A stretch of 64,000 bases of DNA from Acidobacteriota bacterium (GCA_011525365.1 WTGQ01000002.1:473064-537063), one strand, 5' to 3'; shown: positions 14,683 through 62,909, counted from the first letter of the stretch. Numbers and translations: made by a program. Notes: generated by a model not told the origin, from the letters alone.

Positions 14683-14892
14683 GCCGCGCGTCGGCGAAGC
14701 GACCCCCTGGGCACCCCTCCCCCCGGTCCCGCCGCGGGCTGGGCGTCGTCGACGTTCGTCACACGGACTGCCGGTGCGCCGGCCTTCTGGCCGGCTTCTG
14801 GAGCCGCGGGAACATGCAGAGATCGAGTACCCTCGCCGCTTCACGGACGGGCCGTGGTCTGAACTGCGCCTGGCAGAGTAGGGGATCGCAAA

Positions 14893-16481
14893 GTGCAGAA
14901 CCGGTACTTCGGCGACGTAGGCGACTTCGGAAAGTACGGCCTTCTCAGGAGGATCTGTGGCGTTAGCGCCGAGGACGCCGGTGAGGTGCTTTCCCTCGGA
15001 GTCGTCTGGTACCTCGTGGATGACGAGAACCACAACAAGGATGGTAAGCACACCACCTACCTCGATAAGCCTGAGGAGTACCGCGACTGCGATCCTGCGC
15101 TGTTCGACGGTCTGAAGAGTCTGCTCGAAGGGCCGGGTCCACGGGCCGTGAGCAAGATCGAGCGCTCAAGTCCGGAGCTTCTCCCGCATGGCACGAAGTA
15201 CGTCAGCGAACCTCTGACGCGCGAGGGCCGATCGGAGTGGCTCAGTCGGGCGATCGAGGAAGTTCGCGATCGTGATGTCGTCTTCCTGGATCCCGACATC
15301 GGGTTTCAGCCACCGTCTGTGCGGGCGGACAGCAAGAGCGCCGTCCAGTACGTCCTGTGGAAGGAGGCTGAGCGATTTGCTGAATCTCATCAGCAGCAGA
15401 CTTTGGTCTTCTACCATCACCTGAATCGCACGAAGGCCTGGCCGGATCAGATCGACGAGAAGATCCACGAGATTGGTTCGAGGGTCGCTGGGGGTGACGC
15501 CGCGGTACCCGTGCTGTTCAAGAGGGGTACAGGGCGAGTCTTCTTCGTGGTGCCGTCCGCCAAACACCGCGACTTGGTGACATCCCGAGTTCGTAGCATG
15601 GCTGAGAGTCCTAGTTGGAGGCGGCACTTGGGGATTGGCGCTGCGAAGAAGAGGGCCCGGACAGTTAAGGCGAACGGTCTCGTGCGGGTGGGCACCTGGA
15701 ACGTGGAGTGGGCGAAACACGGCTCCCTGAAGGCCAGACGGATTGAGCCGATCCTCGCGGCACCTGATTGCGATGTCCTCTGTGTGACGGAAGGAGGAGA
15801 CGCGGGCATCCTCCCCAAGAGCGGCCATGTGATCGACGCCGGTACGGATTGGGGCTATCCGATACCGAAGGCCAGTCCGGGGCGCAGGAAGGTGTTGCTT
15901 TGGAGCAAGCATCCGTGGACTCCTGTCTTCGAGCCCGGACAGCAAGACCTACCCGGAGGAAGGCTTGTGGCAGGTGTGACGGAGACCCCGATCGGGCGGC
16001 TCACGGTTGTGGGTATCTGCATTCCGTGGGGTGCGGCGCACGTAAGCAGCGGTCGTAGAACAGAAAGCGGTGGGAGGACCATCGCGCCTGGCTCACAAAG
16101 TTTGCAGATCTCGCCTACGCGAGAGCGCCGTCTCGGACGGTCGTGCTGGGTGACTTCAACCAGCGGATTCCGAGAAAGTCTGCGCCGGTGGGCGTGCACG
16201 GCGAGCTCTTGAAGGCCTTTGGGGGTCTGAGTACTGCGACCGAGGGGTTCTTCCAGTCGCCGTACCCGGCAGATGACTCCGGCGGTCCTTGGCAGGCTTC
16301 GTTGTCGGACGTGGCTTCCGCCGAGGAAATGCCCCAGTTCATCGACCACATCGCGCATTCGACGGATTTGGTCCTGGCCGAGCGAGCCGACCGGCGCGTT
16401 GGCGTCTTCCCGAAAAGGGTCAAGCCGGGCGACGGACTCCCGGATCACTTTGGGGCTTGGGTCGATCTCGCTGGGCGCTGA
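14893..16481 (+). pseudogene. Frameshifted two-domain gene: an uncharacterised N-terminal domain (~245 aa, motifs YFGDVGDFGKYGLL and VFLDPDIGF) fused to a C-terminal endonuclease/exonuclease/phosphatase (EEP) domain
   Basis: The EEP motifs are split over two frames. 'LVRVGTWNVEW' and 'VLCVTEG' lie in the 14893..16212 frame. 'VVLGDFNQ' and the terminal 'PDHFGAWVDL' (catalytic His) lie in the 16143..16481 frame. Homology continues right after a stop at 16056-58 in the second frame. A single missing base in the A-run near 16063-16066 would restore 'HVSSGRRTEKRWEDHRAWL'. GC and codon usage are clearly lower than in neighbouring genes. Confidence 0.6.
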
Positions 16482-16587
16482 CGGAGAAGGCGAGGGCTTT
16501 CTCGTCTAGATCCGTAGAGGGACGTGGCTGCGGCGGGTCCCGCCTCCAAGATCTTCACGCTGAACCGACTGTTAGGCTCCAACCCAA

Positions 16588-16854
16588 ATGACGACCTTCG
16601 ACACGCTTGCGGCGGCGCGGACTCTCGAAGGTGCCGGCATGGATCCGGCGCAGGCAGCAGCGGTGACCGAGACGATACGGTCCGCCGCAACGGAGGGGGT
16701 CGCGACTCGATCCGACTTGGCCGAGTTGCGCGGCGATCTGGCCGAACTACGCGGCGATCTGGGCGCGATGGAGGCTCGTCTCACGTGGCGCATGGTGCTC
16801 GTCGCCGGCGCAGTCACGGCCTTGGTTACCGCGCTGGATCGCCTGCTCGGTTGA
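16588..16854 (+). CDS. Small coiled-coil protein with a C-terminal transmembrane anchor (DUF1640-like)
   Basis: 88 aa. It contains a tandem heptad 'LAELRGD LAELRGD' followed by a hydrophobic tail 'MVLVAGAVTALVTALDRLL'. GC3 is high, consistent with coding. Confidence 0.5.
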   Translation: MTTFDTLAAARTLEGAGMDPAQAAAVTETIRSAATEGVATRSDLAELRGDLAELRGDLGAMEARLTWRMVLVAGAVTALVTALDRLLG

Positions 16855-17071
16855 GCACTTCGAGACCGCTCTCTTCGAGAACGCGGTCCATGATCCCCTG
16901 CTCACAGCAGCCCTCGATGAACAGGGCCAGAGCCTCCTGCAGCATGGTCATCGCTTCTTCGGCCGTGGAGCCTTGGCTGGCTACGTGAAGCTGTGGACAC
17001 GAGGCGACCCATGCGTCCCGCTCGCGGTGCAGTTTCGCGGGAAGTTCGTAACTGAGGTCGGTGCAGATCAC
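16826..17071 (-). CDS. HicB-like (UPF0150) antitoxin-family protein, no cognate HicA detected
   Basis: 'DAWVASCPQLHVASQGSTAEEAMTMLQEALALFIEG' matches the HicB N-terminal RNase H-like fold. A perfect AGGAGG RBS sits 6 nt upstream of the GTG at 17069-71. Its 3' end overlaps the convergent small ORF by about 29 nt. Confidence 0.65.
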   Translation of the reverse strand: MICTDLSYELPAKLHRERDAWVASCPQLHVASQGSTAEEAMTMLQEALALFIEGCCEQGIMDRVLEESGLEVLNRAGDPAR

Positions 17072-17248
17072 GCAGCACCTCCTGGGGGCGGGATGCAACC
17101 TAGCACGCGGCTGGTGTGGTGTCGGGACCACGTCCCAGTGGCCGCTTCGGGCGGGTCTCACGGAAGCCGCATCCGACCGTGAACGCTCCACTTACGCGAA
17201 TTCCGGTACAGTGCCGCGCATGTGTAGCCGCAAGATCGGGGCGGTCGC

Positions 17249-18292
17249 TTGAGTACCCGTCCGCTGCTGGCGGCGGCGGAGGGTGAGCGGGACCGCAAGG
17301 CCGAGCACATCCGGCTGGCGCTGGATCGGCGCATGCAGGTCGAGCGCAGCTACTTCGACGACTACCGGTTCGAGCACAGGGCGCTGCCGGAGATCGACTT
17401 CGACGACGTCCGGATCGGCTGCGGCTTCCTGGGACGGGAGCTCGAGGCGCCGCTGCTCATCTCGTGCATGACGGGGGGGACCGGCGCCGCGGAGGAGATC
17501 AACCGCCGCCTGGCTGAGGCGGCCGAGGCGAGGCGGGTCGCTCTCGGCGTCGGCTCGCAGCGCAAGGCGATCGACGATCCGGAGACCGCGGCGACGTTCC
17601 GGGTGCGGGAGTTCGCTCCCAGCGTGCCGATCCTGGCCAATCTGGGCGCGGTGCAACTGAACTACGGCTACGGCATCGACGAGTGCCGCGTGGCGGTCGA
17701 CATGATCGAGGCGGACGCGCTGGTGCTGCACCTGAACGCGCTGCAGGAGGCGCTGCAGCCGGAGGGGCAACTGAACTTCCGCGGACTGCTGCCGAAGATC
17801 GCTCGCGTGGTCGAAGCACTGGACGTGCCGGTGGTGGTCAAGGAGATCGGTTGCGGCATCTCGGCCACTGTCGGCCGGCAACTCGCCAACGTGGGCGTGC
17901 GGATCCTCGACACGGCCGGCGTCGGAGGCACGAGCTGGGCGCGGATCGAGGCGGCCCGGGCCGATGAGGTGGCTCTCGGCGAACGCTTCGCCGACTGGGG
18001 GGTGCCGACGCCGGAGTCGATCCGCCAGTTGGCGGCGGTGCCCGGCGTCCAGGTGATCGGCAGCGGCGGCATTCGCTCCGGCGTCGACGCGGCGAAGGCG
18101 CTGGCCCTCGGCGCCGACGTCGCCGGTATGGCATTCCCGTTCCTGGAGGCTGCCAACGCGTCGACCGAGGCGGTCGTCGACCGGATCTCCCGCACCGCCT
18201 TCGAGCTGCGTACGTGCATGTTCTGCACCGGCGCGGCCGACCTCACGGCGTTGCGCCGCGTGCCGCTCCTGAAGGAGACGGGCGATGGCTGA
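17249..18292 (+). CDS. fni: Type 2 isopentenyl-diphosphate delta-isomerase (FMN-dependent)
   Basis: An FMN-binding TIM-barrel enzyme with typical IDI-2 blocks 'ISCMTGGTGAA', 'NLGAVQL' and 'GSGGIRSGVDAAKALALGAD'. Confidence 0.9.
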   Translation: MSTRPLLAAAEGERDRKAEHIRLALDRRMQVERSYFDDYRFEHRALPEIDFDDVRIGCGFLGRELEAPLLISCMTGGTGAAEEINRRLAEAAEARRVALGVGSQRKAIDDPETAATFRVREFAPSVPILANLGAVQLNYGYGIDECRVAVDMIEADALVLHLNALQEALQPEGQLNFRGLLPKIARVVEALDVPVVVKEIGCGISATVGRQLANVGVRILDTAGVGGTSWARIEAARADEVALGERFADWGVPTPESIRQLAAVPGVQVIGSGGIRSGVDAAKALALGADVAGMAFPFLEAANASTEAVVDRISRTAFELRTCMFCTGAADLTALRRVPLLKETGDG

Positions 18293-19562
18293 TCGGCCGG
18301 TGTCCGGCTCTGAACTGGCTCCCGAACTCGAGGCTGCTGCGGCCGAGATCGCCGGCTCGGAGCGCGGCTTCCACAGGCCGCCGCCCGGTCTCGACGCGGC
18401 GGGGCAGGCCGCGGTGCGGCGCCGGGCTCTGGACCTGGCGACGGGCAGCGGTCCGCTCACGGCGATCGGCAGCTACGCCCTGGACGGCGAACGGGCGTCT
18501 ACCCAGAACTGCGAGAACTTCATCGGCGCCGCTCAGGTGCCGATGGGCGTCGCCGGACCGGTTCACGTACGCGGGAGCGAGATCGCCGGCACGGTGTGCG
18601 TGCCGATGGCGACCACCGAGGGGGCGCTGCTTGCCAGCGTGAACCGCGGCTGTCGCGCGATCACGGCCGCAGGCGGTGCCACCGTCTTCGTCGAGGACGT
18701 GGGCATGACCCGGGCGCCGGTCTTCCGCACCACGGGGATCGAGGATACCCGGCGGCTGCTCGAGTGGCTGGAAGCCAACGAGGAGAGGATCCGCGCCAAG
18801 GCGCAGGAGACGAGCCGCTACCTGAAGCTCCTGGAGATTCGCCCGTCGGTGGTCGGAAGCACCGTGTTTCTGCGCTTCCGCTTCGCCACCGGCGACGCGA
18901 TGGGCATGAACATGGTGACGATCGCCTGCGACCGGCTGGTGTCGGAGCTGATCGAGCCGGAGACCGGCGCCCAGTGCGTCGCGCTGTCGGGGAACTACTG
19001 TGTCGACAAGAAACCCTCCGCGGTCAACTACCAGCTCGGTCGGGGCAAGCGGATTCATGCCGAGGTCGTGCTGGACGAGACGACCGTGCGCAAGGTCCTC
19101 AAGTCGGAGGCGAAGGCACTCCAGGACGTGGCCTACCGCAAGAACCTGCTCGGTTCCGTGGCGGCCGGCGCGCTCGCCTTCAACGCGCAGTTCGCGAACG
19201 TGCTCGCGGCGGTCTTCGTCGCCTGCGGCCAGGATCTCGCGCACGTCGTCGAGGGCGCCATGGGCGTCGCCTCGTTCGAGGCGCGGGAAGACGGCTCGGT
19301 CTACGCGTCCGTCTACATGCCGGATTGCCCGCTGGCCGCGATCGGCGGCGGCACCGGTCTCGACACCCAGCGCGAGGCGCTCGAGGTGATGGGCGTGCGG
19401 CCGGACGCGGCGCGGCCGGGCGCCGCGGTGCGCCGGCTGGCCGAGATCGTCGGCGCGGTCGTCCTGGCCGGCGAACTCTCCCTGACCGCGGCGTTCACGT
19501 CGCGTGACCTGGCGCGCGCCCACGAGCGGCTGGGCCGCTCCAGCGCGGCACGCGCGGGTTGA
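18285..19562 (+). CDS. hmgR: Hydroxymethylglutaryl-CoA reductase
   Basis: HMGR catalytic blocks are present: 'ENFIGAAQVPMGVAGP', 'DAMGMNMVT', 'GNYCVDKKPSAVN' and 'GGGT'. Confidence 0.92.
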   Translation: MADRPVSGSELAPELEAAAAEIAGSERGFHRPPPGLDAAGQAAVRRRALDLATGSGPLTAIGSYALDGERASTQNCENFIGAAQVPMGVAGPVHVRGSEIAGTVCVPMATTEGALLASVNRGCRAITAAGGATVFVEDVGMTRAPVFRTTGIEDTRRLLEWLEANEERIRAKAQETSRYLKLLEIRPSVVGSTVFLRFRFATGDAMGMNMVTIACDRLVSELIEPETGAQCVALSGNYCVDKKPSAVNYQLGRGKRIHAEVVLDETTVRKVLKSEAKALQDVAYRKNLLGSVAAGALAFNAQFANVLAAVFVACGQDLAHVVEGAMGVASFEAREDGSVYASVYMPDCPLAAIGGGTGLDTQREALEVMGVRPDAARPGAAVRRLAEIVGAVVLAGELSLTAAFTSRDLARAHERLGRSSAARAG

Positions 19563-19587
19563 ACCGGAAGCACCGGCGTGGCTGCCG

Positions 19588-19762
19588 CCTGTCCACGGGC
19601 CGTTGGGGAGGGTCCCCAGCGGCCGCTCCCGCTCCCTGATTGGATGAGAGGTTGGCGCTCGCTCCGCTCCGCTCGCTTCGGTAGGGCTCGGTTTCGGGGG
19701 CGTTCGCGGAAGTCGCTCGCTCCGAGTCCGCTGGGAACCCTCCCCAACGGCCCGCCGACAGG
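19588..19762. repeat. Intergenic element (~175 bp) with 35-nt imperfect terminal inverted repeats; MITE-like or a long RNA hairpin
   Basis: The left arm is cctgtccacgggccgttggggagggtccccagcgg (19588-19622). The reverse complement of the right arm (19728-19762) matches it at 32 of 35 positions. The ~105-bp core is rich in cgctcgctccg-type direct repeats. Confidence 0.6.
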
Positions 19763-19792
19763 CTGGATACCGTCGGGCTTTCGGGTCGCTCG

Positions 19793-20947
19793 ATGACCGG
19801 GGATGTGGCGTCCGCGGTGCGGTTGAGCGTGCCGGGCAAGGTGATCCTGATGGGGGAGCACGCGGCCGTCTATGGAAGGCCGGCAGTGGTGGCGGCGGTC
19901 GGACGCCGGCTGGTTGTCGAAGGGGATCTCGGGCCGTCGGCCGTTGGTACGGACAAGGGCCGCGTGCGCCTCGACCTGCCCGACCTCGGTCTCGACGAGG
20001 AGCACTCATGGGGGGCGATCGACGAGTTCACCAGGCGGGCGCGCCGGCGGTGGCACGCTTTCCGTCGGGGTCAGGCGTCCTTTAGGCCGGCGGACGAACT
20101 GAGCGCTCTTGTCAGGATCGCGGTCGGGGAAGCGGTGGCTTCGCTGCCCGAAGTGGCCGTGAGCAGGCTGCGGGAGCAGACACTGGAACTGCGGGTGCAA
20201 TCAGCGATTCCGGTCGGTGCCGGCCTGGGCAGCTCAGCGGCGTCGGCGATCGGGGTGGTGGCGGCGGTGCGGTTTCTAGCCGGCGGGACGCGGTCGGTTC
20301 CGAGTCATGCAGGCGGCCTGAGCGAAGATGAACTGGCTGCAATCGAGGCGACGGCGCTCGAGGTCGAGCGCCGGCAGCACGGTTTCCCGTCGGGGATCGA
20401 TAGCGGTACGGTGCTCCGTGGTGGCGTTCTGCTCGTCCGCCGTATGGGTGACGAGTTGCGATTCGACGACTTGCCGCGGCCGAAGTGGCTTCGCCGCGCG
20501 GTCGAGATCCTCGACAGCGGGACTCCAAGCCAGACCACGGGTGCGGTGGTCACGGCGGTGCGACGGCGCTACGAGGAAGAGCCCGAGCGGACGACCGCCG
20601 TGTTCGACCGCATCGAAGCGGCGGTGGAGTCCTTTCGCGCGGCGCTCGGGGACGGCGGGCCGCGGGATGCGGCTGCCGCCATCGCCGACGGTCATCGCGC
20701 CCTGGTGGAACTCGGCGTGGTGCCGCCGGCGGTCGCTCGCCGGATCGCGTCGGTGGAAGCTGCCGGGGGCGCGGCCAAGATCTCCGGGGCCGGGACCCTT
20801 GAAGGGGAGTCGGCCGGTGCCCTGATCTGCATGCTCGCGGGCCGGTCGACCGGGACGATCGATGGAATCTCGGACCTCGAGTCTGTAAACGCGGCCATCG
20901 GCGCCGGCGGCCTGAGGTTCGAGAGTCCCGCCGCCGATCGACTGTAG
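19793..20947 (+). CDS. mvk: Mevalonate kinase (GHMP kinase)
   Basis: 'PGKVILMGEHAAVYG' is the N-terminal substrate motif. 'PVGAGLGSSAASAIGV' is the GHMP ATP-binding motif. Confidence 0.9.
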   Translation: MTGDVASAVRLSVPGKVILMGEHAAVYGRPAVVAAVGRRLVVEGDLGPSAVGTDKGRVRLDLPDLGLDEEHSWGAIDEFTRRARRRWHAFRRGQASFRPADELSALVRIAVGEAVASLPEVAVSRLREQTLELRVQSAIPVGAGLGSSAASAIGVVAAVRFLAGGTRSVPSHAGGLSEDELAAIEATALEVERRQHGFPSGIDSGTVLRGGVLLVRRMGDELRFDDLPRPKWLRRAVEILDSGTPSQTTGAVVTAVRRRYEEEPERTTAVFDRIEAAVESFRAALGDGGPRDAAAAIADGHRALVELGVVPPAVARRIASVEAAGGAAKISGAGTLEGESAGALICMLAGRSTGTIDGISDLESVNAAIGAGGLRFESPAADRL

Positions 20948-20959
20948 GCTCCGGGAGAG

Positions 20960-22012
20960 ATGAACTCCGCGTTGGAACCGGCCCATGAGCCTGGGCCCGT
21001 GACGGCCGAGGCGCCCTCGAACATCGCCTTCATCAAGTACTGGGGCGCCCGCGATCTCAAGGGTCCGGTTCCCTTCAATCGCTCGCTGTCGATGACCCTG
21101 GACGCCTGCCGGTCGATCTGCTCGGCGTCTCCCCTGGCCACTGGACAGGACGACGAGATCGTGTGGCTGGAAGAGCCGGCAGCTGGTCGAACCGAAGCCG
21201 CCGGCGAAGCGCCGCCGGCCTTCGTCGAGCGGACGCGGCGGCACCTGGACCGGCTGCGCGAGTGGTCGCGGCAGACGGCGGCGCCGTACAGGGGTGGGTT
21301 CCGGATCGCGACCGGCAACACGTTCCCGGCGGCGGCCGGGATCGCCTCTTCCGCTTCGGGCTTCACCGCCCTGACCCTCGCCGTGACGGCCGCCATGGGC
21401 TTCGACCTGCGGCCGCGGACCCTGTCCGCCCTGTCGCGGAGCAGCGGCTCGGGTTCGGCCGCCCGTTCGGCCTACGGTGGCTACGTGGAGTGGCCCGACG
21501 GGAACGACAACAGCGCGGTTCAGGTCCTGGACGAGGCCGCCTGGCCGCTCTGCGATGTGGTCGCCGTCGTCGAGACCGGCGCCAAGAAGGTGTCTTCACG
21601 CGACGGGCACCAGCTCGCGGTCAGCAGCCCGTACTTCGGGCCGCGTCTGGACGCGATCGAGGAGCGCCTGGAAAAGGTGCGCGTTGCGCTCAGGCAGCGC
21701 GACTTCGAGGCCCTGGGGCCGGCGATCGAGGAGGAGGGGATCGACCTCCACCTGATCGCGATGTCGTCCAGGCCACCGGTGTACTACTGGACACCGGGCA
21801 CGATCGAGGTGCTGGCCGCGGTGCGCGATCTGCGCGCGGAAGGCCTGGCGGCCTACGCCACGATGGATGCGGGCGCGAACGTCCACGTGATCTGCCAGCC
21901 GGCCGACGAATCGCGGGTAGCGGAACGGCTCTTGGCACTCGGCAGCGTCGAGCGGGTGCTGCGCGACTGCACCGGCGGCCCGCCGGCGTGGCGCCGCGGA
22001 GCCGGGCTTTGA
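20960..22012 (+). CDS. mvaD: Diphosphomevalonate decarboxylase family (MVD, or phosphomevalonate decarboxylase)
   Basis: 'APSNIAFIKYWGARD' and 'AAAGIASSASGF' are the GHMP/MVD hallmarks. Confidence 0.88.
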   Translation: MNSALEPAHEPGPVTAEAPSNIAFIKYWGARDLKGPVPFNRSLSMTLDACRSICSASPLATGQDDEIVWLEEPAAGRTEAAGEAPPAFVERTRRHLDRLREWSRQTAAPYRGGFRIATGNTFPAAAGIASSASGFTALTLAVTAAMGFDLRPRTLSALSRSSGSGSAARSAYGGYVEWPDGNDNSAVQVLDEAAWPLCDVVAVVETGAKKVSSRDGHQLAVSSPYFGPRLDAIEERLEKVRVALRQRDFEALGPAIEEEGIDLHLIAMSSRPPVYYWTPGTIEVLAAVRDLRAEGLAAYATMDAGANVHVICQPADESRVAERLLALGSVERVLRDCTGGPPAWRRGAGL

Positions 22013-22884
22013 GTGCGGCCGCCGCCGAGCGCGCCTGGGACGAGCGGCTGGACGTCACCCTGGTCAAGCTCGGCGGCAGCCTGATCACGGACAAGACGAA
22101 GCCGCGCACGGTCGCGAACGAACACCTGCGGCGGCTGGCGGCCGAGATCGCTGCCGGTTGGTCGGGGAACGGCCTCGTGGTCGGTCACGGCAGCGGTTCC
22201 TTCGGACACCCGGAGGCGCGCGCGGCCGGCCTGGCCGGCGGTGGCGGTGCCCGTCCGGACTCGGCCCTGGACCGGATGGGCGTTGCGCGCACGCAGTCCG
22301 CGGCCTTCGAGCTTCACCGGCTGGTCGTCGGAAGCCTGGTCGAGGCGGGTGTGCCTGCCTACTCGCAACTGCCGTCCGGCTTTCTGACCGCCTGTGACGG
22401 GGAGCCTGACGGACCGCCGCCCGCACCGCTGGCCGCGGCGCTGAGGCAGGGCCTGGTGCCGGTCACGATGGGCGATGTCGTCGTCGACCGGACGCGCGGG
22501 GCTTCGATCGCGTCGACGGAGACGGTGTTCGAGTTCCTTGCCCGCGCCCTCGTTCCGCTCGGTATCGAGGTGCGACGGGCGTTGTGGCTCGGTGCCACGG
22601 CCGGTGTGCTGGACGGCGCGGGCCGGCTCGTTCCCCGCATCGACGCGGCGAACATCGGCGCGGCGTCGGAGGCTGCCGGCGGCTCACCGGCGGTCGATGT
22701 CACCGGTGGCATGGAGCACCGCCTGGCGACTGCCTGGGCGCTGGCCCGGCGCGGCGTCGAATCGCTCATCATCGACGGGCGCCGGCCCGGCCTCCTCGAG
22801 TCGGCGCTTCGGCGCCCGAACGGGGAGGCGGAGAGCGCCGGTACACTCGTGCGTCCGAGCGAGGTGGAAGATGCGCGCCAGTAG
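22009..22884 (+). CDS. ipk: Isopentenyl phosphate kinase (amino-acid-kinase fold)
   Basis: 'VTLVKLGGSLITDK' is the AAK N-terminal glycine loop. 'VVGHGSGSFGH' is the IPK His-containing motif. The TTG start overlaps the mvaD stop. Confidence 0.8.
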   Translation: MSAAAAERAWDERLDVTLVKLGGSLITDKTKPRTVANEHLRRLAAEIAAGWSGNGLVVGHGSGSFGHPEARAAGLAGGGGARPDSALDRMGVARTQSAAFELHRLVVGSLVEAGVPAYSQLPSGFLTACDGEPDGPPPAPLAAALRQGLVPVTMGDVVVDRTRGASIASTETVFEFLARALVPLGIEVRRALWLGATAGVLDGAGRLVPRIDAANIGAASEAAGGSPAVDVTGGMEHRLATAWALARRGVESLIIDGRRPGLLESALRRPNGEAESAGTLVRPSEVEDARQ

Positions 22885-23548
22885 CACCGTCGAGGACTAC
22901 CTGAAGTGCATCTTCCTGGCGGAGCATGAAGCCCGGATGGAGGGTGCGGAGCTCGTACCGATGGGACGGATCGCGGCGCGCCTCAAGGTGGCTCCCGCCT
23001 CGGTCACGGCGATGATGAAGACCCTCGCCGAGTCCGGACTGATCGCCTACGAACCGTACAGCGGCGTCCGACTCCTGCCGGCGGGTCGCAAGCTGGCGAC
23101 TCACGTGCTCAGGCGGCATCGGCTGATCGAGCTCTTCCTGGTCAACGTGATGGGGTTCGACTGGAGCGAGGTCCACTCCGAGGCCGAGCTGCTCGAGCAC
23201 TCCGTTTCCGGGCGGATGATCGAACGGATGGACGAGATGCTCGGCCATCCGTCGGTGGATCCCCACGGCGATCCGATTCCGAGCGCCGACGGTCACATCG
23301 AGCTCGTCGATCATCCGAGCCTGTTGAAGTGTGCCTTGAACCAGGTCGTCGAGGTGGTCCGGGTGACGGACCAGAACGCCGAGTTCCTGCGCTTCGCGGA
23401 GCGCGAAGGGTTGATGCCCGGCAGCCTGGTTGAGGTGGCGGCGCGGGACGAGACGGCCGGCAGCGTTGCCGTGGTTTCGGATGCGCGCGAGTTCAGCCTG
23501 GGCTTTCCCGCCGCGTCCAAGGTGCTCGTGCGCGAAGCGGCGAGCTAG
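22871..23548 (+). CDS. DtxR/MntR-family metal-dependent transcriptional regulator with a C-terminal FeoA/SH3-like domain
   Basis: 'TVEDYLKCIFLAE' and 'VTAMMKTLAESGLIAYEPYSGVRLLPAG' form the DtxR HTH and dimerisation region. The metal-site His/Glu/Cys pattern is present. It overlaps the ipk 3' end by 14 nt. Confidence 0.88.
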   Translation: MRASSTVEDYLKCIFLAEHEARMEGAELVPMGRIAARLKVAPASVTAMMKTLAESGLIAYEPYSGVRLLPAGRKLATHVLRRHRLIELFLVNVMGFDWSEVHSEAELLEHSVSGRMIERMDEMLGHPSVDPHGDPIPSADGHIELVDHPSLLKCALNQVVEVVRVTDQNAEFLRFAEREGLMPGSLVEVAARDETAGSVAVVSDAREFSLGFPAASKVLVREAAS

Positions 23549-24054
23549 GCGTCGGCGCCGGCGGCGACGACGAAGAGCGGCTGGCCGCCGTCGACCGTCT
23601 GGCCGACTTCGACGAGGAGTTGCTCGAGCCGCCCGTCGATCTCCGACTGGATCTCGTTCTCCATCTTCATCGCCTCGAGCACGACGACGCCCTGCCCCGA
23701 AGTCACCTCGTCGCCCTCGGCCACGAGCACGGCCGTGACGCGGCCGGGCATGTAGGCGGTCGCCTCGAACGTGTCGGCGTCTCCTTGCTGGGTCGCCTCA
23801 CCGAGAGCCCGCGAGCGAGGGTCGATCACCCTCAGTTCGGCGCCGTCGACGTCGTAAACGCCGTTGCCGAGCGAGCGGACGCTTTGCGTCGCCTGACGCC
23901 CGTTGACGATCACGCTCAGGACGTCCGGCCGCCCCAGCGTGGCGGCGTCCACCCGGTATTCGCGGTCGTCAACGGCGACGGTCCAGTGGCCGTTCGCCTC
24001 GGCGCGGACCTCGACGCGGACCTCCTCGGCGGCGCGGGCGACGATCAGTTCCAA
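23545..24054 (-). CDS. Biotin carboxyl carrier protein (biotinyl domain) of an acyl-CoA carboxylase
   Basis: An 'EAMKMENEI' biotinylation motif sits in the C-terminal lipoyl-like domain. It is encoded immediately downstream of the biotin carboxylase. Confidence 0.85.
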   Translation of the reverse strand: MELIVARAAEEVRVEVRAEANGHWTVAVDDREYRVDAATLGRPDVLSVIVNGRQATQSVRSLGNGVYDVDGAELRVIDPRSRALGEATQQGDADTFEATAYMPGRVTAVLVAEGDEVTSGQGVVVLEAMKMENEIQSEIDGRLEQLLVEVGQTVDGGQPLFVVAAGADA

Positions 24055-25613
24055 GTCGTGCCTCTCCGGGCGTCGTGACGCGCCGCGAGCCGCCAGTTCG
24101 ACGGCGGGGCGCCGCCGCCGGCCGCGGTCGCGGTTCCGTTCGCGCCGGCGCGCTCCAGGTGGGCGAGGACGACGGCGAGGACAGGCAGGTCGGTCTCCAG
24201 GGCGTCGTCGTCCGGCGCCGGCGGCCGCAACTCGCCGTTCTCGAGCTTGCGATCCAGCATCGAGATGTCCATGTTGCCGGTCACGAAGTCCTCGTCCTCG
24301 AGCAGTCGCTCGAAGAGGGCGAGGTTGGTGCGGATACCCTCCACCCGGGTTTCGGCGAGCGCCCGCCTCAGCCGAGCCAGAGCGTCGCTGCGGTCGCGTC
24401 CCCAGACGATCAGCTTGGCCAGCATCGGGTCGTAGTGGATCGTCACCTCGGCGCCTTCGTAGACGCCGCAGTCGTTGCGGACGCCCGGGCCCTCGGGCAG
24501 TTGTAGCAGTTCGATCCGGCCGGGCGAGGGAGCGAAGTTGCGGAATGGATCCTCCGCGTACAGGCGGACCTCGACCGCGTGCCCGCGAGGCTCCATGCCG
24601 TTCTCCAGCGTCTCAGGCAGCGGTTCGCCGGCCGCGATGTCGAGCTGGGCGGCCACGATGTCGACGCCGGTGACCAGCTCGGTGACCGGATGCTCGACCT
24701 GGATCCTCGTGTTCATCTCCAGGAAGTAGAACTCTCCCCGGGGATCGAGCAGGAACTCCACCGTGCCCGCGCCGACGTAGTTCACGGCGGCCGCGGCGCG
24801 GACCGCGGCTTCGCCCATGCGGCGGCGGAGATCCGCGTCGACGACGGGCGACGGCGCCTCTTCGACCACCTTCTGGTGCCGCCGTTGCAGGGAGCACTCC
24901 CGTTCGCCGAGGGAGACGATCCGGCCGTGCCGGTCGCCGAGGACCTGGATCTCGACGTGGCGCGGCCGCTCGACGAAGCGCTCGATGTATACCGAGGCGT
25001 CATCGAAGCTGGCGCCGGCCTCCGAGGTCGCGCCCCGGAATGCCGCTTCGAGTTCGCTCTCCTCCCGTACCAGCCGCATTCCCTTGCCGCCCCCGCCGGC
25101 GGAGGCCTTGAGCATCACCGGATAGCCGATCTTGCTTGCCGCGTCGCGAGCCGCCTCGGCGGACGGGAGGGGATCCGTTCCTCCCGGCACGATGGGTACG
25201 CCGGCCGCGGTCATCAGGCGCCGGCTCTCGATCTTCGAACCCATCGCGGCGATCGCCGCGGAGGGCGGCCCGATGAAGGTGATCCCGCGTTCCTCGCAGA
25301 GGCGCGCGAAACCGGCGTTCTCGGACAGGAAGCCGTAGCCGGGGTGGATCGCGTCGGCGCCGATGGACGCGGCGAGGTCGACGATTCTCTCGGCCCTGAG
25401 GTAGCTCTCGATCGAGGGCGCGGGGCCGATGCAGTGGGCCTCGTCCGCCATCTGTGTGGCGAGACCGGCGCGGTCCGCCTCCGAGTAGACGGCGACCGAG
25501 ACGATGCCGCGCTCGCGAAGCGCCCGGATCACCCGCACCGCGATTTCACCGCGGTTCGCGACGAGCACCTTCTTCAGGCCGTTCTTCATGGTAGAGGGGC
25601 GCATCCTAGCCAA
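24045..25613 (-). CDS. accC: Biotin carboxylase subunit of acetyl/propionyl-CoA carboxylase
   Basis: ATP-grasp biotin carboxylase blocks: 'KVLVANRGEIAVRVIRA', 'GYPVMLKASAGGGGKGMR' and 'EMNTRIQVEHPVTE'. It is not fused to BCCP. The exact start (M1 versus M9) is uncertain. Confidence 0.92.
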   Translation of the reverse strand: MARMRPSTMKNGLKKVLVANRGEIAVRVIRALRERGIVSVAVYSEADRAGLATQMADEAHCIGPAPSIESYLRAERIVDLAASIGADAIHPGYGFLSENAGFARLCEERGITFIGPPSAAIAAMGSKIESRRLMTAAGVPIVPGGTDPLPSAEAARDAASKIGYPVMLKASAGGGGKGMRLVREESELEAAFRGATSEAGASFDDASVYIERFVERPRHVEIQVLGDRHGRIVSLGERECSLQRRHQKVVEEAPSPVVDADLRRRMGEAAVRAAAAVNYVGAGTVEFLLDPRGEFYFLEMNTRIQVEHPVTELVTGVDIVAAQLDIAAGEPLPETLENGMEPRGHAVEVRLYAEDPFRNFAPSPGRIELLQLPEGPGVRNDCGVYEGAEVTIHYDPMLAKLIVWGRDRSDALARLRRALAETRVEGIRTNLALFERLLEDEDFVTGNMDISMLDRKLENGELRPPAPDDDALETDLPVLAVVLAHLERAGANGTATAAGGGAPPSNWRLAARHDARRGTTWN

Positions 25614-29110: not shown

Positions 29111-29995
29111 GTGCCGCTCTTCAGGTCGCTCCGGCCGGCGCAGTGGAGCAAGAACGTATTCGTCCTGGCGCCGGCGACGTTCGCCGGCAGCCTCCTGGAT
29201 CGCGGCACGCTGGAGGCGTCGGCGATCGCCTTCGTCTCGTTCTGCGCCGCGGCCAGTGCCGTCTACCTGTTCAACGATCTCCGCGACCGCGAGCAGGACC
29301 GCCGCCATCCGCGCAAGCGCCTGCGGCCGGTGGCGTCCGGCGCCCTGGGAACTGCGCCCGCCGCCGCGATGGGCGTCGCCCTTGCCGCCGCCGCGCTCAT
29401 CGCGGCCTGGACGCTCAACCGGGAGACGGCGCTCCTGGTCGGCCTCTACCTGTTGGCGAACCTCCTGTACAGCCTGTGGCTGAAGGAGATCGTGATCGTC
29501 GACGTGATGGTGCTGGCGAGCGGCTACGTCATCCGGGTGTTGGTTGGAGCGGCCGCGGTCGGGGTCACGGTTTCCGCCTGGCTGCTGCTCTGTACGGTCT
29601 TCCTGTCGCTGTTCCTGGGCTTCTCCAAGCGCCGCCACGAACTCGTGCTGCTTCCGGATGACGCCGGTGAGCAGCGGGCGGTACTCGATCACTACAGCCC
29701 GACGTTCCTGGACCAGATGATGAACGTCGTGACGGCTTCGACCTTGCTGTCCTACGCCCTCTACACGACCGCCGACGACACGGTCATGCGCTTCGGCGAC
29801 TACGGCCTGGTGTGGACCGTTCCGTTCGTGCTGTTCGGCATCTTCCGTTACCTGTACCTGATCCACCAGGCCGACAATCCGAAACAGCGGAACCCGACCG
29901 AGCTACTCCTCTACGACGTTCCCTTCCTGGTGAACGTGGGGCTCTACGCCCTGGCTGTCTTCGCCATCGTTTACCTGCCGGGGCCGGCGCAGTAG
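29111..29995 (+). CDS. UbiA-family prenyltransferase, resembling decaprenyl-phosphate phosphoribosyltransferase
   Basis: 'SLRPAQWSKN' N-terminus. 'YLFNDLRDREQDRRHPRKRLRP' is the NDxxDxxxD Asp-rich motif plus the HPxKxxRP block characteristic of DPPR-synthase-like UbiA enzymes. Confidence 0.85.
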   Translation: MPLFRSLRPAQWSKNVFVLAPATFAGSLLDRGTLEASAIAFVSFCAAASAVYLFNDLRDREQDRRHPRKRLRPVASGALGTAPAAAMGVALAAAALIAAWTLNRETALLVGLYLLANLLYSLWLKEIVIVDVMVLASGYVIRVLVGAAAVGVTVSAWLLLCTVFLSLFLGFSKRRHELVLLPDDAGEQRAVLDHYSPTFLDQMMNVVTASTLLSYALYTTADDTVMRFGDYGLVWTVPFVLFGIFRYLYLIHQADNPKQRNPTELLLYDVPFLVNVGLYALAVFAIVYLPGPAQ

Positions 29996-30949
29996 CGACA
30001 GCACCCAGGGCATCGCCAGCAGGCCGACCGCGACCGCGAACCAGAGCGTGGCGGCGCGGACGATGACGGTCGAGGCCATCGCGGCGTCGAGAGCGACGCC
30101 CTGGCGTTCCAGCAACAGGACGAGCGATCCCTCCGCCGCGAGCAGGCCGCCGGGGATCATCGAGGCGGCGCCCGCTACGCTGGAGGCCGCGTAGTCGAAC
30201 ACCGAGGCCAGCACGGGCACCGAGGGCGCGTAGTGGCGGACGACGAGCGCGCAGCCGATCCCCTCCGCCGCCCATGCCGCGGTGGACAGGGCGAGCCCCG
30301 GAAGCAGCATCCTGGGCTCCACCAGTTTCGTGAATGCCTGGTGAATGTCGATCAGCACGGCGGCGCGGCCTTTGGCGAGTCGGGTCTTCGCCAGCAGGGG
30401 CAGCAGTCGTTTCGTCAGGGGGCCGTAGGCAACCGCGACCACGGCGCCGGCCGCGACGAGGACGATGGGAGCGACGAATGAGCGCTGGCCGGTGAAGACG
30501 AAGACCGACGACAGGAGCAGCAGCAGGACGGCGAGCACGTCGAGCAGCCGTTCGGTGACGACGACGGCGATGACCGGACGGGCCCGTCCGCCACCGAACT
30601 CGCGTGCCAGCCAGGCCTTGGCGAGCTCGCCGGCCTTGCCCGGGGTCACCGCGAGCAGGAAGCCGGTCAGGAAGATCGCGAGGCTGCGGCTCCAGCGCAG
30701 GCGGACGTCGAGTTGCCGCAGGTACATCTGCCAGCGAACGAAGCGCAGCCAGTAGTTGACCGCGGACAGCAGCAGCACGACGACCAGCGTCGAGACGCTG
30801 AAGTCCCGGATCAGATCGCGGATCTGCTCGAAGTCGCCGACAAAGCCGAGCGCGGCGAAGGTGACCGTGCCCAGCAGGAGCAGGATCAGCAGGCCCCTTC
30901 CGATGCCGCGGAACGGCTGGTGGTTGGAGAGCTGCACGAGCGGCGGCAT
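29903..30949 (-). CDS. Flippase-like / lysylphosphatidylglycerol-synthase-TM-domain family (UPF0104) membrane protein
   Basis: About 8 TM helices. 'LTGFLLAVTPGKAGELAKAW' is the conserved UPF0104 block. Its 3' end overlaps the convergent UbiA-family gene by 93 bp. Confidence 0.7.
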   Translation of the reverse strand: MPPLVQLSNHQPFRGIGRGLLILLLLGTVTFAALGFVGDFEQIRDLIRDFSVSTLVVVLLLSAVNYWLRFVRWQMYLRQLDVRLRWSRSLAIFLTGFLLAVTPGKAGELAKAWLAREFGGGRARPVIAVVVTERLLDVLAVLLLLLSSVFVFTGQRSFVAPIVLVAAGAVVAVAYGPLTKRLLPLLAKTRLAKGRAAVLIDIHQAFTKLVEPRMLLPGLALSTAAWAAEGIGCALVVRHYAPSVPVLASVFDYAASSVAGAASMIPGGLLAAEGSLVLLLERQGVALDAAMASTVIVRAATLWFAVAVGLLAMPWVLSLLRRPRQVNDGEDSQGVEPHVHQEGNVVEE

Positions 30950-36259: not shown

Positions 36260-37953
36260 AGAGGCCGGCGTCGGCTCAGGGCAGTTCCACCCTGCTGGTG
36301 ACGCTCATCCTGCTTCTTCTGAGCGGCTCCTGCCTGGCGTTGCTGATGGCGACGCAGACGGAACTGCTGGTCGCTTTCCAGGACAAGGTCCAGGTGCGTC
36401 TGCTCGCCGCGGCGGACGGCGGCCTGGAGCTTGGAGTGGCGCGCGGCATCGCCGGCGCCGGGGAGCCGACGATGCGAACCCTCGGCGGCTCGCTGCCCGG
36501 CGCCGAGGTCCGGGTCGAGCTGTCCGGCTTCGTCCCCATGGCGCACGGCGCCTGCCACCTGTGCATGACGAACCTGGAGGGAACGCTGGGATCGCTGGGC
36601 GGCTTGAGGCGGGTGAGCCACGCCGTCTCGGCTACGGCGACCGCTCCGCGCCGTTCGGACGGTCTCCCGCCGCCCCTGCGCTCCGTGTCCGCCGTGGTCG
36701 ACCTGATGCCCTGGCCGGCGGGAAGCCGGGACCGGTGGGACCTGGCTGCGACGATGGCGGCCGCGCGGCGGCGGATCCGGCAGATTGCCCTTGCCGGGGC
36801 CGGCGACTACGAGGAAGGAGCGCCGCTCGCGGTGACGAGGTTGGAAGACAGCGATGGCGATCCGCCGCGCACCGTGGCGGTCGGTAGCTCCGGCCGATCG
36901 CTTCATGCCGTCGAGATGGCACCAGGTGCGGGTCCGCTCTGGTCGTTCGCCGACGTGACCGACGAGGACGGCAACGGTGCGCCCGATCTCGGCAGCTCGC
37001 TGGCGCCGCCGGCGATCGTGAGGCTGCGTCTGGGGGAAGGTGGCCGTCCGGTGGTGCTCTTCGGCGGCGGTTACGATCCCGAGCTTCCGGACGACGTCGG
37101 CAACTGGCTCTACATCGTAGGAGTCGACTCCGGCACGCTGCTCTACAAGCGCCGGCTGGACGCTCCGGTCACGGCGTCGCTGGCCGCGGCCGACCTCGAC
37201 GGCGATGGCATGGCCGACCGGATCTACGTCGGCACACTCGCCGGCAGCCTGTACCGCGTCGACGTGTCGACTCCCGCGCGACTCGCCGCCGGCCGGGTCG
37301 CGGCGGACGTCTGGGCGCCCCGGCGGGTGTTCGAGACCGGCGGGCGGCCGATCCGCCAGCCGCCCGCGGTGGTGCCGGCGCCGGAGGCCGGTGCGGAGGT
37401 GCTGGCCTTGGGCGCGGACGGGCGAGTCGACGTCCGGGCGTCGCCCGAGGAGGCGGCCGGCCGGTTCTTCGTCCTGGTCGACCGCGGATCGGAGCGCGTC
37501 GACCCAGCCTGGTCGCTCGCTCTTGAGCAGGGCGAGGAGATCGCCTCGCCGCCTTTGGCGGCCGCCGGCCTGCTGACCTTCCTGACCTTCAGGCCGACCG
37601 GGCTCGACGGCGGGGAGATCCATCGCTACTCGCTCCGGCTTCGTTCCGGCGATGCCGCCGCCGGTGGAGTGCGCGGCGTGCAGATCGCCAGCGGCGCCTC
37701 GCGGCCCTCGGTCGACTTCGGTGCGCCGACCCGGCTGGAGGTGGACCGTCCGGGGAGCGCCTTCGCGCCCCTGCTTTCACCTGGCGAAGAACGCGTCGTG
37801 GAGACGCTCCGGGCCGGTATGCCGTCAAGTTGTCGGTTCGCCGGCGCCCGCCTGCGCATTGTCGGCGCGGGCCTGGACGCCGAGCCGCTTCGTCTGGCGG
37901 TCCTGCCCGTATGCCGGATCGACATCGACTGGTTCGAGAACGGGAGGTTCTAG
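36256..37953 (+). CDS. PilX-N-terminal-domain / PilY1-like fusion protein (type IV pilus tip or minor pilin-associated)
   Basis: The N-terminus 'MKRPASAQGSSTLLVTLILLLLSGSCLALLM' is PilX-N like. The C-terminal half has a 'DLDGDGMAD' calcium-binding-type loop and Gly-rich beta-repeat character typical of PilY1-like domains. Confidence 0.6.
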   Translation: MKRPASAQGSSTLLVTLILLLLSGSCLALLMATQTELLVAFQDKVQVRLLAAADGGLELGVARGIAGAGEPTMRTLGGSLPGAEVRVELSGFVPMAHGACHLCMTNLEGTLGSLGGLRRVSHAVSATATAPRRSDGLPPPLRSVSAVVDLMPWPAGSRDRWDLAATMAAARRRIRQIALAGAGDYEEGAPLAVTRLEDSDGDPPRTVAVGSSGRSLHAVEMAPGAGPLWSFADVTDEDGNGAPDLGSSLAPPAIVRLRLGEGGRPVVLFGGGYDPELPDDVGNWLYIVGVDSGTLLYKRRLDAPVTASLAAADLDGDGMADRIYVGTLAGSLYRVDVSTPARLAAGRVAADVWAPRRVFETGGRPIRQPPAVVPAPEAGAEVLALGADGRVDVRASPEEAAGRFFVLVDRGSERVDPAWSLALEQGEEIASPPLAAAGLLTFLTFRPTGLDGGEIHRYSLRLRSGDAAAGGVRGVQIASGASRPSVDFGAPTRLEVDRPGSAFAPLLSPGEERVVETLRAGMPSSCRFAGARLRIVGAGLDAEPLRLAVLPVCRIDIDWFENGRF

Positions 37954-43353: not shown

Positions 43354-44955
<1,602 letters not shown>

Positions 44956-50800: not shown

Positions 50801-51544
50801 ATGAGTGACGAGAACCTCGAACAGGCTGCATCCCCCGCGGAGGAGCCCACGAAGGACGAACCGACCGCGCTGACCTCCGCTGAACAGGGCCTGCTGACCT
50901 ACGTGCAGGAGACCCGCGAGGACAACAAGACGTTCCGCTACTCGTTGGGGCTGGCGGTCATCCTGCACGGGATCCTGCTGATCGTGAAGCTGCCCGACCT
51001 GTACGGCGACACAGTGGCGCCGCCGCCGAAGCCCAAGGTCTTCGTCGTGCAGCAGGTGCGCTTCAAGCCGCCGCCGCCGAAGGAAGAGCAGCAGATTCCG
51101 AAGCCGAAGTCGAAGAAGGTTCCGATCCCCGATCCCACGCCCGACGAGCCGGAGCCGATCCGGATCGACGAGCCTGAGGAGATCGACATCCCCGAGGTCG
51201 ACGATCTCGATCTCTTCGACCTCCCCGAGGCGCCGCCTCCGCCGGAACCGACCGGGCCGATCTACGTCACCGGCGACGTGACGAAGCCGGAGAAGATCAA
51301 CGAGATCCAGCCCCAGTACACCGAGATCGCGCGCAAGGCGCGGATCCAGGGTGTCGTCATCCTCCAGGCGACGATCGACAAGAACGGCGACATCACCGAC
51401 ATCAAGGTTCTGAAGCCTCTGCCGATGGGTCTTGCCGAAGCCGCGGTGTCGGCGGTGCAGCAGTGGAAGTTCAAGCCGGCGACGCTGAACGGCAAGCCGG
51501 TCGCCGTGTACTACAACCTGACCGTCAACTTCCAGCTCCAGTAG
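50801..51544 (+). CDS. tonB: Energy transducer TonB
   Basis: A TM anchor is followed by a Pro/Lys/Glu-rich spacer (PPPKPKV...) and a TonB C-terminal domain '[33 protein letters not shown]'. Confidence 0.85.
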   Translation: [247 protein letters not shown]

Positions 51545-61701: not shown

Positions 61702-61712
61702 CGCTAGCGATG

Positions 61713-62909
61713 CTAACCGCGAAGCTGCGCGAGGACTTCCCGGGCGTGGCGTCGGCCCCAGGAATCCCACTCCAGGGCCTCGTCGATCGTCGCCGGCTCC
61801 GTGCCGCCGGTTTCCCGCCCGTGGCGGTCGAGCACTTCCGCCACGGCCGGCACGATGGCGGAGAAGGGCGCCGCGCCGCCGAGGAACGCAGCCACCGCCG
61901 TCTCGTTTGCCGCGTTGAGCGCCGCCGGCGCGCCGTTCCCCCGGATGAGCGCCTCGCGGGCGAGGGACGGCGCCGGGAAGACTTCCGGGTCGACTCGTCG
62001 GAACTGAAGCTCGGAGGCCGCCTCCAGCAGTTCACTCAGTCCGTTGGCGGCGCCGTCGTCGGGGCGCGGCCAACGTTCGGGATGGGACAGGGCGTACCGG
62101 ATCGGATACTCCATGTCGTTGGCCGAGATCTGGGCGATCGAGTTGCCGTCCCGGAACTCGACGATCGAGTGAACCAGGGACTGTGGGTGGATCAGGATGT
62201 CGATCCGCGATCCGGGAACGTCGAACAGGTAGCTCGCCTCGATCAGTTCCAGACCCTTGTTCATCAGCGTCGCGGAGTCGACGCTGATCTTGGCCCCCAT
62301 GTTCCAGGTCGGATGGTCCGTCGCCTCGGCCGGCGTGACAGTGTCCAGGGTTGCCGGGTCACGGTCGAGGAACGGACCGCCCGAGGCGGTCAACACGAGG
62401 CGCCTGACCTCGCGGCGCCGACCCGCTCGCAGCGCCTGGTGGATCGCGGCGTGTTCGCTGTCGACCGGCAGGATCTTCGCGTCCGACTCGGCCGCCAGCC
62501 GGCGCAGGTGAGGCCCGGCGGCAACCATCGCCTCCTTGTTCGCCAGCGCCAGGTCGGCGCCTGCGGCAAGGGCCGCCGCGGCGGGCTTGAGACCGGCCGC
62601 GCCGACGATCGCGGTCAGCACGAGGTCGTTGTGGCCGTCCCCGACCGCGTCGACCAGGGCGTCTTCGCCCCAACCGACGTCTGTGCCCGGGGGCAGGTCG
62701 GGACGCAGGCGTCCCGACGCCTGCTCCGTCTCGACGACCACTCGGCGAGGCCGGAACTCGCGCGCCAGCTCCGCGAGCCGCGCGGGCTTCGTGCCCCTTG
62801 CCGCCAGGACGCACACCTGGAGCTTCTCGGGGTGCCGGCGCGCGACGGCGAGGGCCGCCTCGCCGACCGAGCCGGTGGCGCCAAGCACGGCGAGCCTGCG
62901 TACGCTCAC
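61713..62909 (-). CDS. dxr: 1-deoxy-D-xylulose-5-phosphate reductoisomerase
   Basis: 'LAVLGATGSVG', 'DSEHAAIHQ' and 'LTASGGPF' are present. The 5' end overlaps the cdsA 3' end. Confidence 0.93.
   Translation of the reverse strand: MSVRRLAVLGATGSVGEAALAVARRHPEKLQVCVLAARGTKPARLAELAREFRPRRVVVETEQASGRLRPDLPPGTDVGWGEDALVDAVGDGHNDLVLTAIVGAAGLKPAAAALAAGADLALANKEAMVAAGPHLRRLAAESDAKILPVDSEHAAIHQALRAGRRREVRRLVLTASGGPFLDRDPATLDTVTPAEATDHPTWNMGAKISVDSATLMNKGLELIEASYLFDVPGSRIDILIHPQSLVHSIVEFRDGNSIAQISANDMEYPIRYALSHPERWPRPDDGAANGLSELLEAASELQFRRVDPEVFPAPSLAREALIRGNGAPAALNAANETAVAAFLGGAAPFSAIVPAVAEVLDRHGRETGGTEPATIDEALEWDSWGRRHAREVLAQLRG

Follow-up and report, generated by a model that had tools for sequence, protein, structure and literature searches.

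A predicted phosphomevalonate decarboxylase-isopentenyl phosphate kinase branch of the mevalonate pathway encoded by an operon of an uncultured Acidobacteriota bacterium

The 64,000-nucleotide stretch of an Acidobacteriota genome analysed in this work (GCA_011525365.1, WTGQ01000002.1:473064-537063; hereafter the window) carries a mevalonate (MVA) operon in which the gene of an isopentenyl phosphate kinase (IPK) directly follows that of a decarboxylase of the MVD family. Judging from gene content and from the residues of the decarboxylase, this six-gene operon, encoding a type 2 isopentenyl diphosphate (IPP) isomerase (IDI-2), a class-I HMG-CoA reductase (HMGR), a mevalonate kinase (MVK), a phosphomevalonate decarboxylase (PMD)-type enzyme, IPK and a MntR/DtxR-like regulator, quite probably specifies the haloarchaea/Chloroflexi-type ('alternative I') MVA route. 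HMGR would reduce HMG-CoA to mevalonate, to be converted by MVK into mevalonate 5-phosphate (MVAP); the MVD-family enzyme would then phosphorylate the 3-OH at the expense of ATP and decarboxylate the product to isopentenyl phosphate (IP), IPK would phosphorylate IP to IPP, standing in for phosphomevalonate kinase (PMK), and IDI-2 would equilibrate IPP with dimethylallyl diphosphate (DMAPP). The pathway itself is known; what is likely new is the lineage that hosts it. This host, an uncultured bacterium close to Candidatus Multivorans, belongs to the class Thermoanaerobaculia of the Acidobacteriota: the closest species-level genomes by decarboxylase identity are those of a Thermoanaerobaculia bacterium (85%) and of Candidatus Multivorans sp. 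(77%; 5.06-Mb chromosome), a taxon placed by NCBI in the Acidobacteriota, class Thermoanaerobaculia, order Candidatus Multivoradales. The window has a G+C content of ~70% and encodes both TonB and BamD, so that the diderm host proposed in a first-pass annotation, made from the sequence alone, stands.

The same annotation had listed IDI-2, HMGR, MVK, the MVD-family decarboxylase and IPK as a cluster, and all five genes were found on the plus strand (Table 1), with intact reading frames and full-length domain matches when Pfam models were scanned against ~60 window open reading frames (ORFs) and NCBIfam scores were judged against curated cut-offs. HMGR falls slightly below the cut-off of the class-I model TIGR00533 (425 bits, cut-off 441.8) and scores just 33 bits with the class-II model TIGR00532. 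The junctions are tight: the HMGR start overlaps the IDI-2 stop by 8 nt, 12 nt separate MVK from the decarboxylase, the IPK gene, starting with TTG, overlaps that of the decarboxylase by 4 nt (TTGA), and the last 14 nt of the IPK gene are shared with the start of the repressor gene; the sole sizeable gap is one of 230 nt between HMGR and MVK. A MntR/DtxR-like gene is kept directly 3' of the operon in relatives (after IPK in loci L005, L006 and L007, and after IPK and a squalene synthase gene in L004; L labels are ours) and is therefore probably co-transcribed with it; why a metal-responsive regulator should be coupled to mevalonate genes is not obvious. Scanning the operon for promoters and terminators returned nothing above chance, and Rfam detected no RNA family in the window.

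The GHMP-family kinase of the operon retrieved rat and human MVK as top PDB matches (E 1.8e-17) and bears the N-terminal motif PGKVILMGEH. Custom hidden Markov models (HMMs), derived for MVK and the decarboxylase from the window genes and for PMK from eight Firmicutes PMKs, were searched against every ORF of the window with a length of 100 aa or more. The kinase reached 372 bits with the MVK model and 24 bits with the PMK model; the latter value is comparable to those of genuine Firmicutes MVKs, to which this PMK model assigns 27-41 bits, and the kinase therefore behaves as a MVK. This search yielded one MVK and one decarboxylase, the sole match of the PMK model being MVK itself, and the Pfam scans of the window found neither a PMK, GHMP or P-loop, nor HMG-CoA synthase or thiolase. 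MVK is the only GHMP kinase within the 64 kb, as the first reading of the sequence had it, and we infer both the absence of PMK farther away in the genome and a source of HMG-CoA for the reductase. The IPK matches six archaeal IPK entries of the PDB (E 6e-26 to 4e-19), and its translation contains the motifs VKLGGS and HGSGSFGH that had been noticed beforehand. When aligned to 3ll9 it retains KLGGS..K, GSFGH (the catalytic-histidine motif) and DVTGGM, all among the residues listed as conserved in IPKs (Dellas et al., PMC3857490, Table 2).

The assignment of the pathway hinges on the decarboxylase, whose best PDB sequence match is the PMD of Anaerolinea thermophila (6n0x/6n0y; E 3.4e-57, 197.6 bits, 37-38% identity), whereas classical diphosphomevalonate decarboxylases (MDDs) match it with no more than 160 bits and 30-32% identity (E. 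faecalis MDD, E 6e-46). Its AlphaFold model (pLDDT 93.6) led to the same enzyme, with A. thermophila PMD chains occupying all the top 17 Foldseek matches (TM 0.86/0.93). Site residues were read from HMMER alignments to 6n0x, 6n0z, 6e2s and 3qt5, and mutant positions from PDB sequences and titles, 6n0z being entitled 'N20K H194M mutant' of A. thermophila PMD. At these two sites YWG-N and G-H are found in the wild-type PMD, and YWG-K and G-M both in the mutant and in the MDDs of E. faecalis and S. epidermidis; the comparison with characterised enzymes at discriminating residues that the first-pass annotation had called for gave YWG-A (Ala30) and G-H (His217) for the window protein, that is, no Lys at the first site and the PMD-like His at the second. 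The Lys at the first site (Lys21 of S. epidermidis MDD) is listed among the MDD residues binding the phosphate groups of the substrate and is replaced in mevalonate 5-phosphate decarboxylases (MPDs) (Dellas et al., PMC3857490, Table 4), and the Chloroflexota enzymes are described as devoid of this Lys and furnished with the PMD His (Zhu et al., PMC11052028). None of 120 database homologues with at least 54% identity has Lys at the first site, where ~110 have Ala and the others, as far as legible, Thr, Ser, Ile or Val, and for almost all of them the second site could be read as His. In our decarboxylase alignment the invariant columns, all present in the window protein, include Asp303 of the DAG motif, the loop Lys209 and the GHMP ATP-binding stretch (G127, A129, S130-S132).

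The residue at the first site was also set against gene neighbourhoods. One genome per GTDB species was scanned and 80 loci were collected with 10 kb on either side, IPK or PMK-like genes being sought within 5 kb of the decarboxylase; a threshold of 250 bits was set for counting an IPK neighbour, because over-extended ORFs of high G+C content had entered the initial IPK model. Decarboxylases with Lys had a PMK-like neighbour in 20 loci, an IPK in none and neither in 7, and those with a non-basic residue showed the reverse pattern (0 with PMK-like, 18 with IPK and 29 with neither gene). The association of Lys versus non-basic residues with the type of neighbour is strong (Fisher's exact p 3e-11) and persists when eight loci of the window's own clade, scored as having IPK neighbours, are removed (p 3e-8). 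In the 80 loci a PMK, where present, lay no farther than 5 kb from the decarboxylase, and PMK and IPK never occurred together. Most non-basic loci with neither neighbour belong to Chloroflexi, whose mevalonate-pathway genes are known to be dispersed (PMC6107057). The PMD-IPK route put forward at first pass thus finds support in the nearest characterised relative, in the lack of Lys combined with the PMD His, a pattern invariant across the clade, in the correlation with neighbouring genes, in the retained IPK motifs and in the 4-nt overlap of the decarboxylase and IPK genes, and the decarboxylase is predicted to act on MVAP.

Several observations weigh against this assignment. Arg at the Lys site was found with either type of neighbour (PMK-like in three loci, IPK in one, neither in one). 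The second-site His also occurs in many Lys-bearing homologues; therefore the Lys site alone discriminates, and His217 by itself was discarded as a PMD marker. With the generic 'diphosphomevalonate decarboxylase' model TIGR01240 the protein scores above the threshold (213 bits, cut-off 171), and it fails the haloarchaeal PMD equivalog NF040704 (MvaD; ~122 bits, cut-off 475). The Ser-Ser-Arg stretch known from classical MDDs is retained, and wild-type A. thermophila PMD was crystallised with mevalonate 5-diphosphate (MVAPP) as well (6n0y), which shows that binding of the diphosphate is possible for such enzymes. The window clade forms a long branch of its own in a rough neighbour-joining tree, not nested among the Chloroflexi PMDs, and it lies outside both the Lys+Met clade with E. 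faecalis MDD and the Asn+His group with A. thermophila PMD. Finally, the search for PMK covered 64 kb only. As to its name, the protein is annotated as 'diphosphomevalonate decarboxylase' in NCBI and JGI records, a label that the PDB gives to A. thermophila PMD chains too and that therefore does not separate MDD from PMD. The two hallmarks of a classical MDD, a Lys for the substrate diphosphate and a PMK partner gene, are not seen in the 64 kb, Ala30 taking the place of the Lys. A role as a Thermoplasma-type enzyme is not supported: scores were far below cut-off for mevalonate 3-kinase (NF040848, 39/440 bits) and bisphosphomevalonate decarboxylase (NF040847, 21/560 bits), and the catalytic Asp303 and the GHMP ATP-binding stretch, both invariant, are retained. 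The decarboxylase is PMD-like by every available sequence criterion, yet it belongs to neither characterised PMD subfamily.

The dual crystallography of the A. thermophila enzyme, with MVAP in 6n0x and MVAPP in 6n0y, raises the alternative of a promiscuous decarboxylase accepting both the 5-phosphate and the 5-diphosphate of mevalonate, the flux then being set only by the kinase that happens to be present. Dual activity has been described for Chloroflexota enzymes (Zhu et al., PMC11052028), and the MDD-type Ser-Ser-Arg stretch of the window protein fits this view, which we nonetheless regard as unlikely, given that the MPD of Roseiflexus castenholzii had no detectable activity on MVAPP (PMC3857490, Table 3). 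As an IPK is encoded and no PMK was seen, flux would in any case still run from MVAP to IP to IPP, so that this alternative differs from the PMD-IPK route in enzymology only. Rather improbable too is a classical pathway, in which an unlinked PMK would make MVAPP, the decarboxylase would be an ordinary MDD, as its TIGR01240 score and database name would have it, and IPK would merely salvage IP. The limited span of the PMK search leaves room for such a gene, and bacteria of the Candidate Phyla Radiation (CPR) do carry IPK beside classical genes (Hoshino and Gaucher, PMC6107057). Against it, the Lys present in 20/20 PMK-linked decarboxylases is missing here and in 120/120 close homologues, the surveyed loci always placed PMK near the decarboxylase and never together with IPK, the nearest characterised relative is a PMD, and the slot of PMK is taken by an IPK whose gene overlaps that of the decarboxylase. 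That the operon is instead a recently acquired, non-functional passenger decaying beside a 2-C-methylerythritol 4-phosphate (MEP) pathway, as might be read from the intact dxr in the same window, the lack of HMG-CoA synthase and thiolase nearby, the palindromic insertion in the HMGR-MVK spacer and the ~2.5 kb of extra sequence just upstream, is very hard to reconcile with five intact frames with full-length domain matches, retained invariant decarboxylase columns, a G+C content at third codon positions (0.80-0.91) like that of the rest of the window, and the conservation described below.

The order IDI-2-HMGR-MVK-decarboxylase-IPK is kept in relatives with long enough contigs, down to 49% decarboxylase identity; at least 10 species-level genomes (49-85% protein identity) and ~120 clusters formed at 90% identity retain the operon. 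No PMK-like gene was detected within 10 kb on either side in relatives L004-L015. The order MVK-decarboxylase-IPK recurs in metagenome-assembled genomes (MAGs) labelled Chloroflexi (L016), Planctomycetota (L038) and CPR (L046). A 608-aa protein (P0131, on a 212-kb NCBI contig) joins an IPK (residues 4-261) and a MVD-family decarboxylase (269-606) in a natural fusion, linking both activities in the manner of a 'Rosetta stone'; its Lys-site residue is Arg. The decarboxylase gene is directly followed by IPK in MAGs labelled Planctomycetota (L038), Gammaproteobacteria (L030), CPR (L044, L046) and Gemmatimonadota (L012), labels that derive from MAG binning; the Lys-site residue is Arg in L044 and non-basic in the other four. 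One Acidobacteriota-labelled MAG (isolate M_MetaBat.94; L070, 6575-10961) has a decarboxylase gene followed in turn by a PMK-like gene (153 bits) and by the gene of a 750-aa match to the MVK model, a classical-type cluster which indicates that Acidobacteriota hold both pathway types; MVK-matching proteins of ~750-800 aa were also seen in L052, L060, L061, L067, L076 and L080.

The PMD-IPK branch has been experimentally demonstrated only in haloarchaea and Chloroflexi, the latter being the only bacteria known to have it (PMC6107057; repeated in PMC11052028), and our literature search returned nothing joining Thermoanaerobaculia or Acidobacteriota to mevalonate with isopentenyl phosphate. The rarity in bacteria asserted at first pass agrees with these reports but not with the databases, which contain many Thermoanaerobaculia genomes with the operon in addition to single Planctomycetota- and CPR-labelled MAGs. 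The closest parallel is the MPD and IPK pair of R. castenholzii (Dellas et al. 2013, PMC3857490), which shares with the window MVK, a Lys-less MVD-family decarboxylase, an IPK carrying the histidine motif and, over the 64 kb searched on our side, the lack of a PMK, and hence the same logic of MVAP to IP to IPP, predicted on our side from the genes. The two differ in phylum, ours being an acidobacterial diderm, and in the Lys-site residue, Ala here and Leu there. More generally, the window genes form one tight operon whereas those of Chloroflexi are mostly dispersed (29/47 non-basic loci without neighbour; PMC6107057), and its HMGR is of class I whereas Chloroflexi are reported with HMGR-II (PMC6107057). 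A. thermophila PMD (6n0x, 6n0y, 6n0z) has in common with the window enzyme a residue other than Lys at N20 and the His at H194, but identity is ~38%, Asn stands in place of Ala, Gly-Ser-Thr in place of Ser-Ser-Arg precedes the His, and the two fall into separate neighbour-joining clades. As far as PMC6107057 relates the work of VanNice et al. (2014), PMD and IPK of Haloferax volcanii carry out the same two terminal reactions that we propose here, although the window decarboxylase scores outside the haloarchaeal subfamily, as noted above for NF040704. The classical mvaK1-mvaD-mvaK2 operons of Enterococcus and Staphylococcus share the order of MVK and decarboxylase, the GHMP fold and ATP-dependent decarboxylation, but their third gene encodes the GHMP kinase PMK and not IPK, and their MDDs have Lys and Met where the window enzyme has Ala and His.

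The window further encodes an intact DXP reductoisomerase, Dxr, of the MEP pathway, flanked by cdsA and rseP (Table 1). The mevalonate operon is therefore probably an extra and not the only route to IPP, and the host probably has both the MVA and the MEP pathways, a combination considered unusual in a bacterium according to the literature. The operon would then probably represent a second IPP supply, possibly feeding squalene or hopanoid synthesis, a physiological role that we infer from gene context in relatives. A gene of the squalene/phytoene-synthase family lies after or near IPK in the more distant L004, L008, L009, L010, L012 and L015, and a squalene-hopene cyclase gene and a HpnH-like radical SAM gene lie just upstream of the operon in L004 and L012, whose decarboxylases are 54-57% identical to that of the window. 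No squalene or hopanoid genes were found in the 64-kb window of the host itself. Genes homologous to those of squalene-hopene cyclase, HpnH or HpnA were also observed close to the decarboxylase gene in the Chloroflexota-labelled L042, the Rhodanobacteraceae-labelled L067 and the Proteobacteria-labelled L085. A supply of HMG-CoA from leucine through the biotin carboxylase, biotin carboxyl carrier protein (BCCP) and carboxyltransferase genes of the window was considered and rejected, as these genes match accC-type and mmdA/propionyl-CoA-type families and not specifically methylcrotonyl-CoA carboxylase.

If the PMD-IPK route operates in this widespread acidobacterial clade, the known distribution of the branch widens, which bears on its origin and horizontal spread, the automatic name 'diphosphomevalonate decarboxylase' is probably wrong for this clade, and the five enzyme genes become a compact module to try in pathway engineering. 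The distinction between Lys and non-basic residues at a single site, checked against the neighbourhood, offers a practical rule for re-annotating MVD-family proteins, and, with dxr in the same window as the operon, it is worth asking why two routes to IPP should be maintained. It is tempting to speculate, in a more doubtful vein, that Thermoanaerobaculia decarboxylases might constitute a separate PMD-type lineage, marked by Ala and a branch of its own, in a diderm that keeps the MEP pathway; that the operon might be a dedicated second IPP supply for squalene or hopanoids under MntR/DtxR control; and that MVK-PMD-IPK might be a portable module that has spread to Acidobacteriota, Chloroflexota, Planctomycetota and CPR.

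Table 1. Features of the operon, of the remainder of the window and of two related loci (window coordinates unless a locus is named).
Feature	Coordinates	Strand	Evidence and remarks
Type 2 IPP isomerase (IDI-2, fni)	17249..18292	+	TIGR02151 389 bits, cut-off 281; PF01070; first gene of the operon
HMGR, class I (NADPH-type), soluble catalytic domain only	18285..19562	+	PF00368 382 bits, whole profile
Palindromic element in HMGR-MVK spacer	19587..19763		Arms 19587-19622 and 19728-19763, 36 nt each, 92% complementary, 105 nt apart
Mevalonate (5-)kinase, GHMP family	19793..20947	+	TIGR00549 138 bits (below 163 cut-off); TIGR01220 (PMK) 18.7 bits
MVD-family ATP-dependent decarboxylase, predicted PMD	20960..22012	+	TIGR01240
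Isopentenyl phosphate kinase, amino-acid-kinase fold	22009..22884	+	NF040647 129 bits, cut-off 120
DtxR/MntR-family metal-dependent repressor	22871..23548	+	PF01325, PF02742, PF04023; NF047407 MntR 182 bits (below 350 cut-off)
Biotin carboxylase and separate BCCP-like protein	23545-25589	-	Right after the operon, opposite strand; syntenic in L005
UbiA-family gene	29111-29995	+	Decaprenyl-phosphate phosphoribosyltransferase NF008977 281 bits, cut-off 234
MprF-like flippase-domain gene	29903-30949	-	Adjoins UbiA-family gene
Selenocysteine synthase SelA	37950-39287	-	PF03841, 351 bits
mmdA/propionyl-CoA-type carboxyltransferase	43354-44955	+	18 kb from biotin carboxylase
TonB	50801-51544		TonB/ExbBD encoded in window
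BamD/YfiO	58031-58900		Window scan
rseP, M50 protease	60391-61770	-	Flanks dxr
DXP reductoisomerase Dxr (MEP pathway)	61713..62900	-	TIGR00243 360 bits, cut-off 315.7; all three Dxr Pfam domains; outside the operon
cdsA	62906-63787	-	Flanks dxr
Hopanoid-type flanks and squalene/phytoene-synthase-family gene, L004	1-6296, 11944-12852
Hopanoid-type flanks and squalene/phytoene-synthase-family gene, L012	142-2884, 13472-14464

The HMGR-MVK spacer folds with -143.9 kcal/mol, and the sequence of the palindrome arms occurs only twice in the window. In most relatives, by ORF or source gene calls, this spacer is small or missing, and it measures ~1.1 kb in L006. The element is probably an inserted repeat or a structured spacer, looks like a small insertion at a recurrent insertion point, and is not needed for reading the pathway. 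Upstream of the operon, ~2.5 kb of lower-GC sequence (14683-17248) separate moaA from IDI-2, with ORFs lacking Pfam matches, a weak Exo_endo_phos match and an opposite-strand HicB-like/DUF7387 ORF; on account of this content and of the mere 41 nt between the same genes in L005, it is probably an insertion. The UbiA-family gene is not present in the otherwise syntenic L005. The window also encodes SelA, and the host therefore probably uses selenocysteine.

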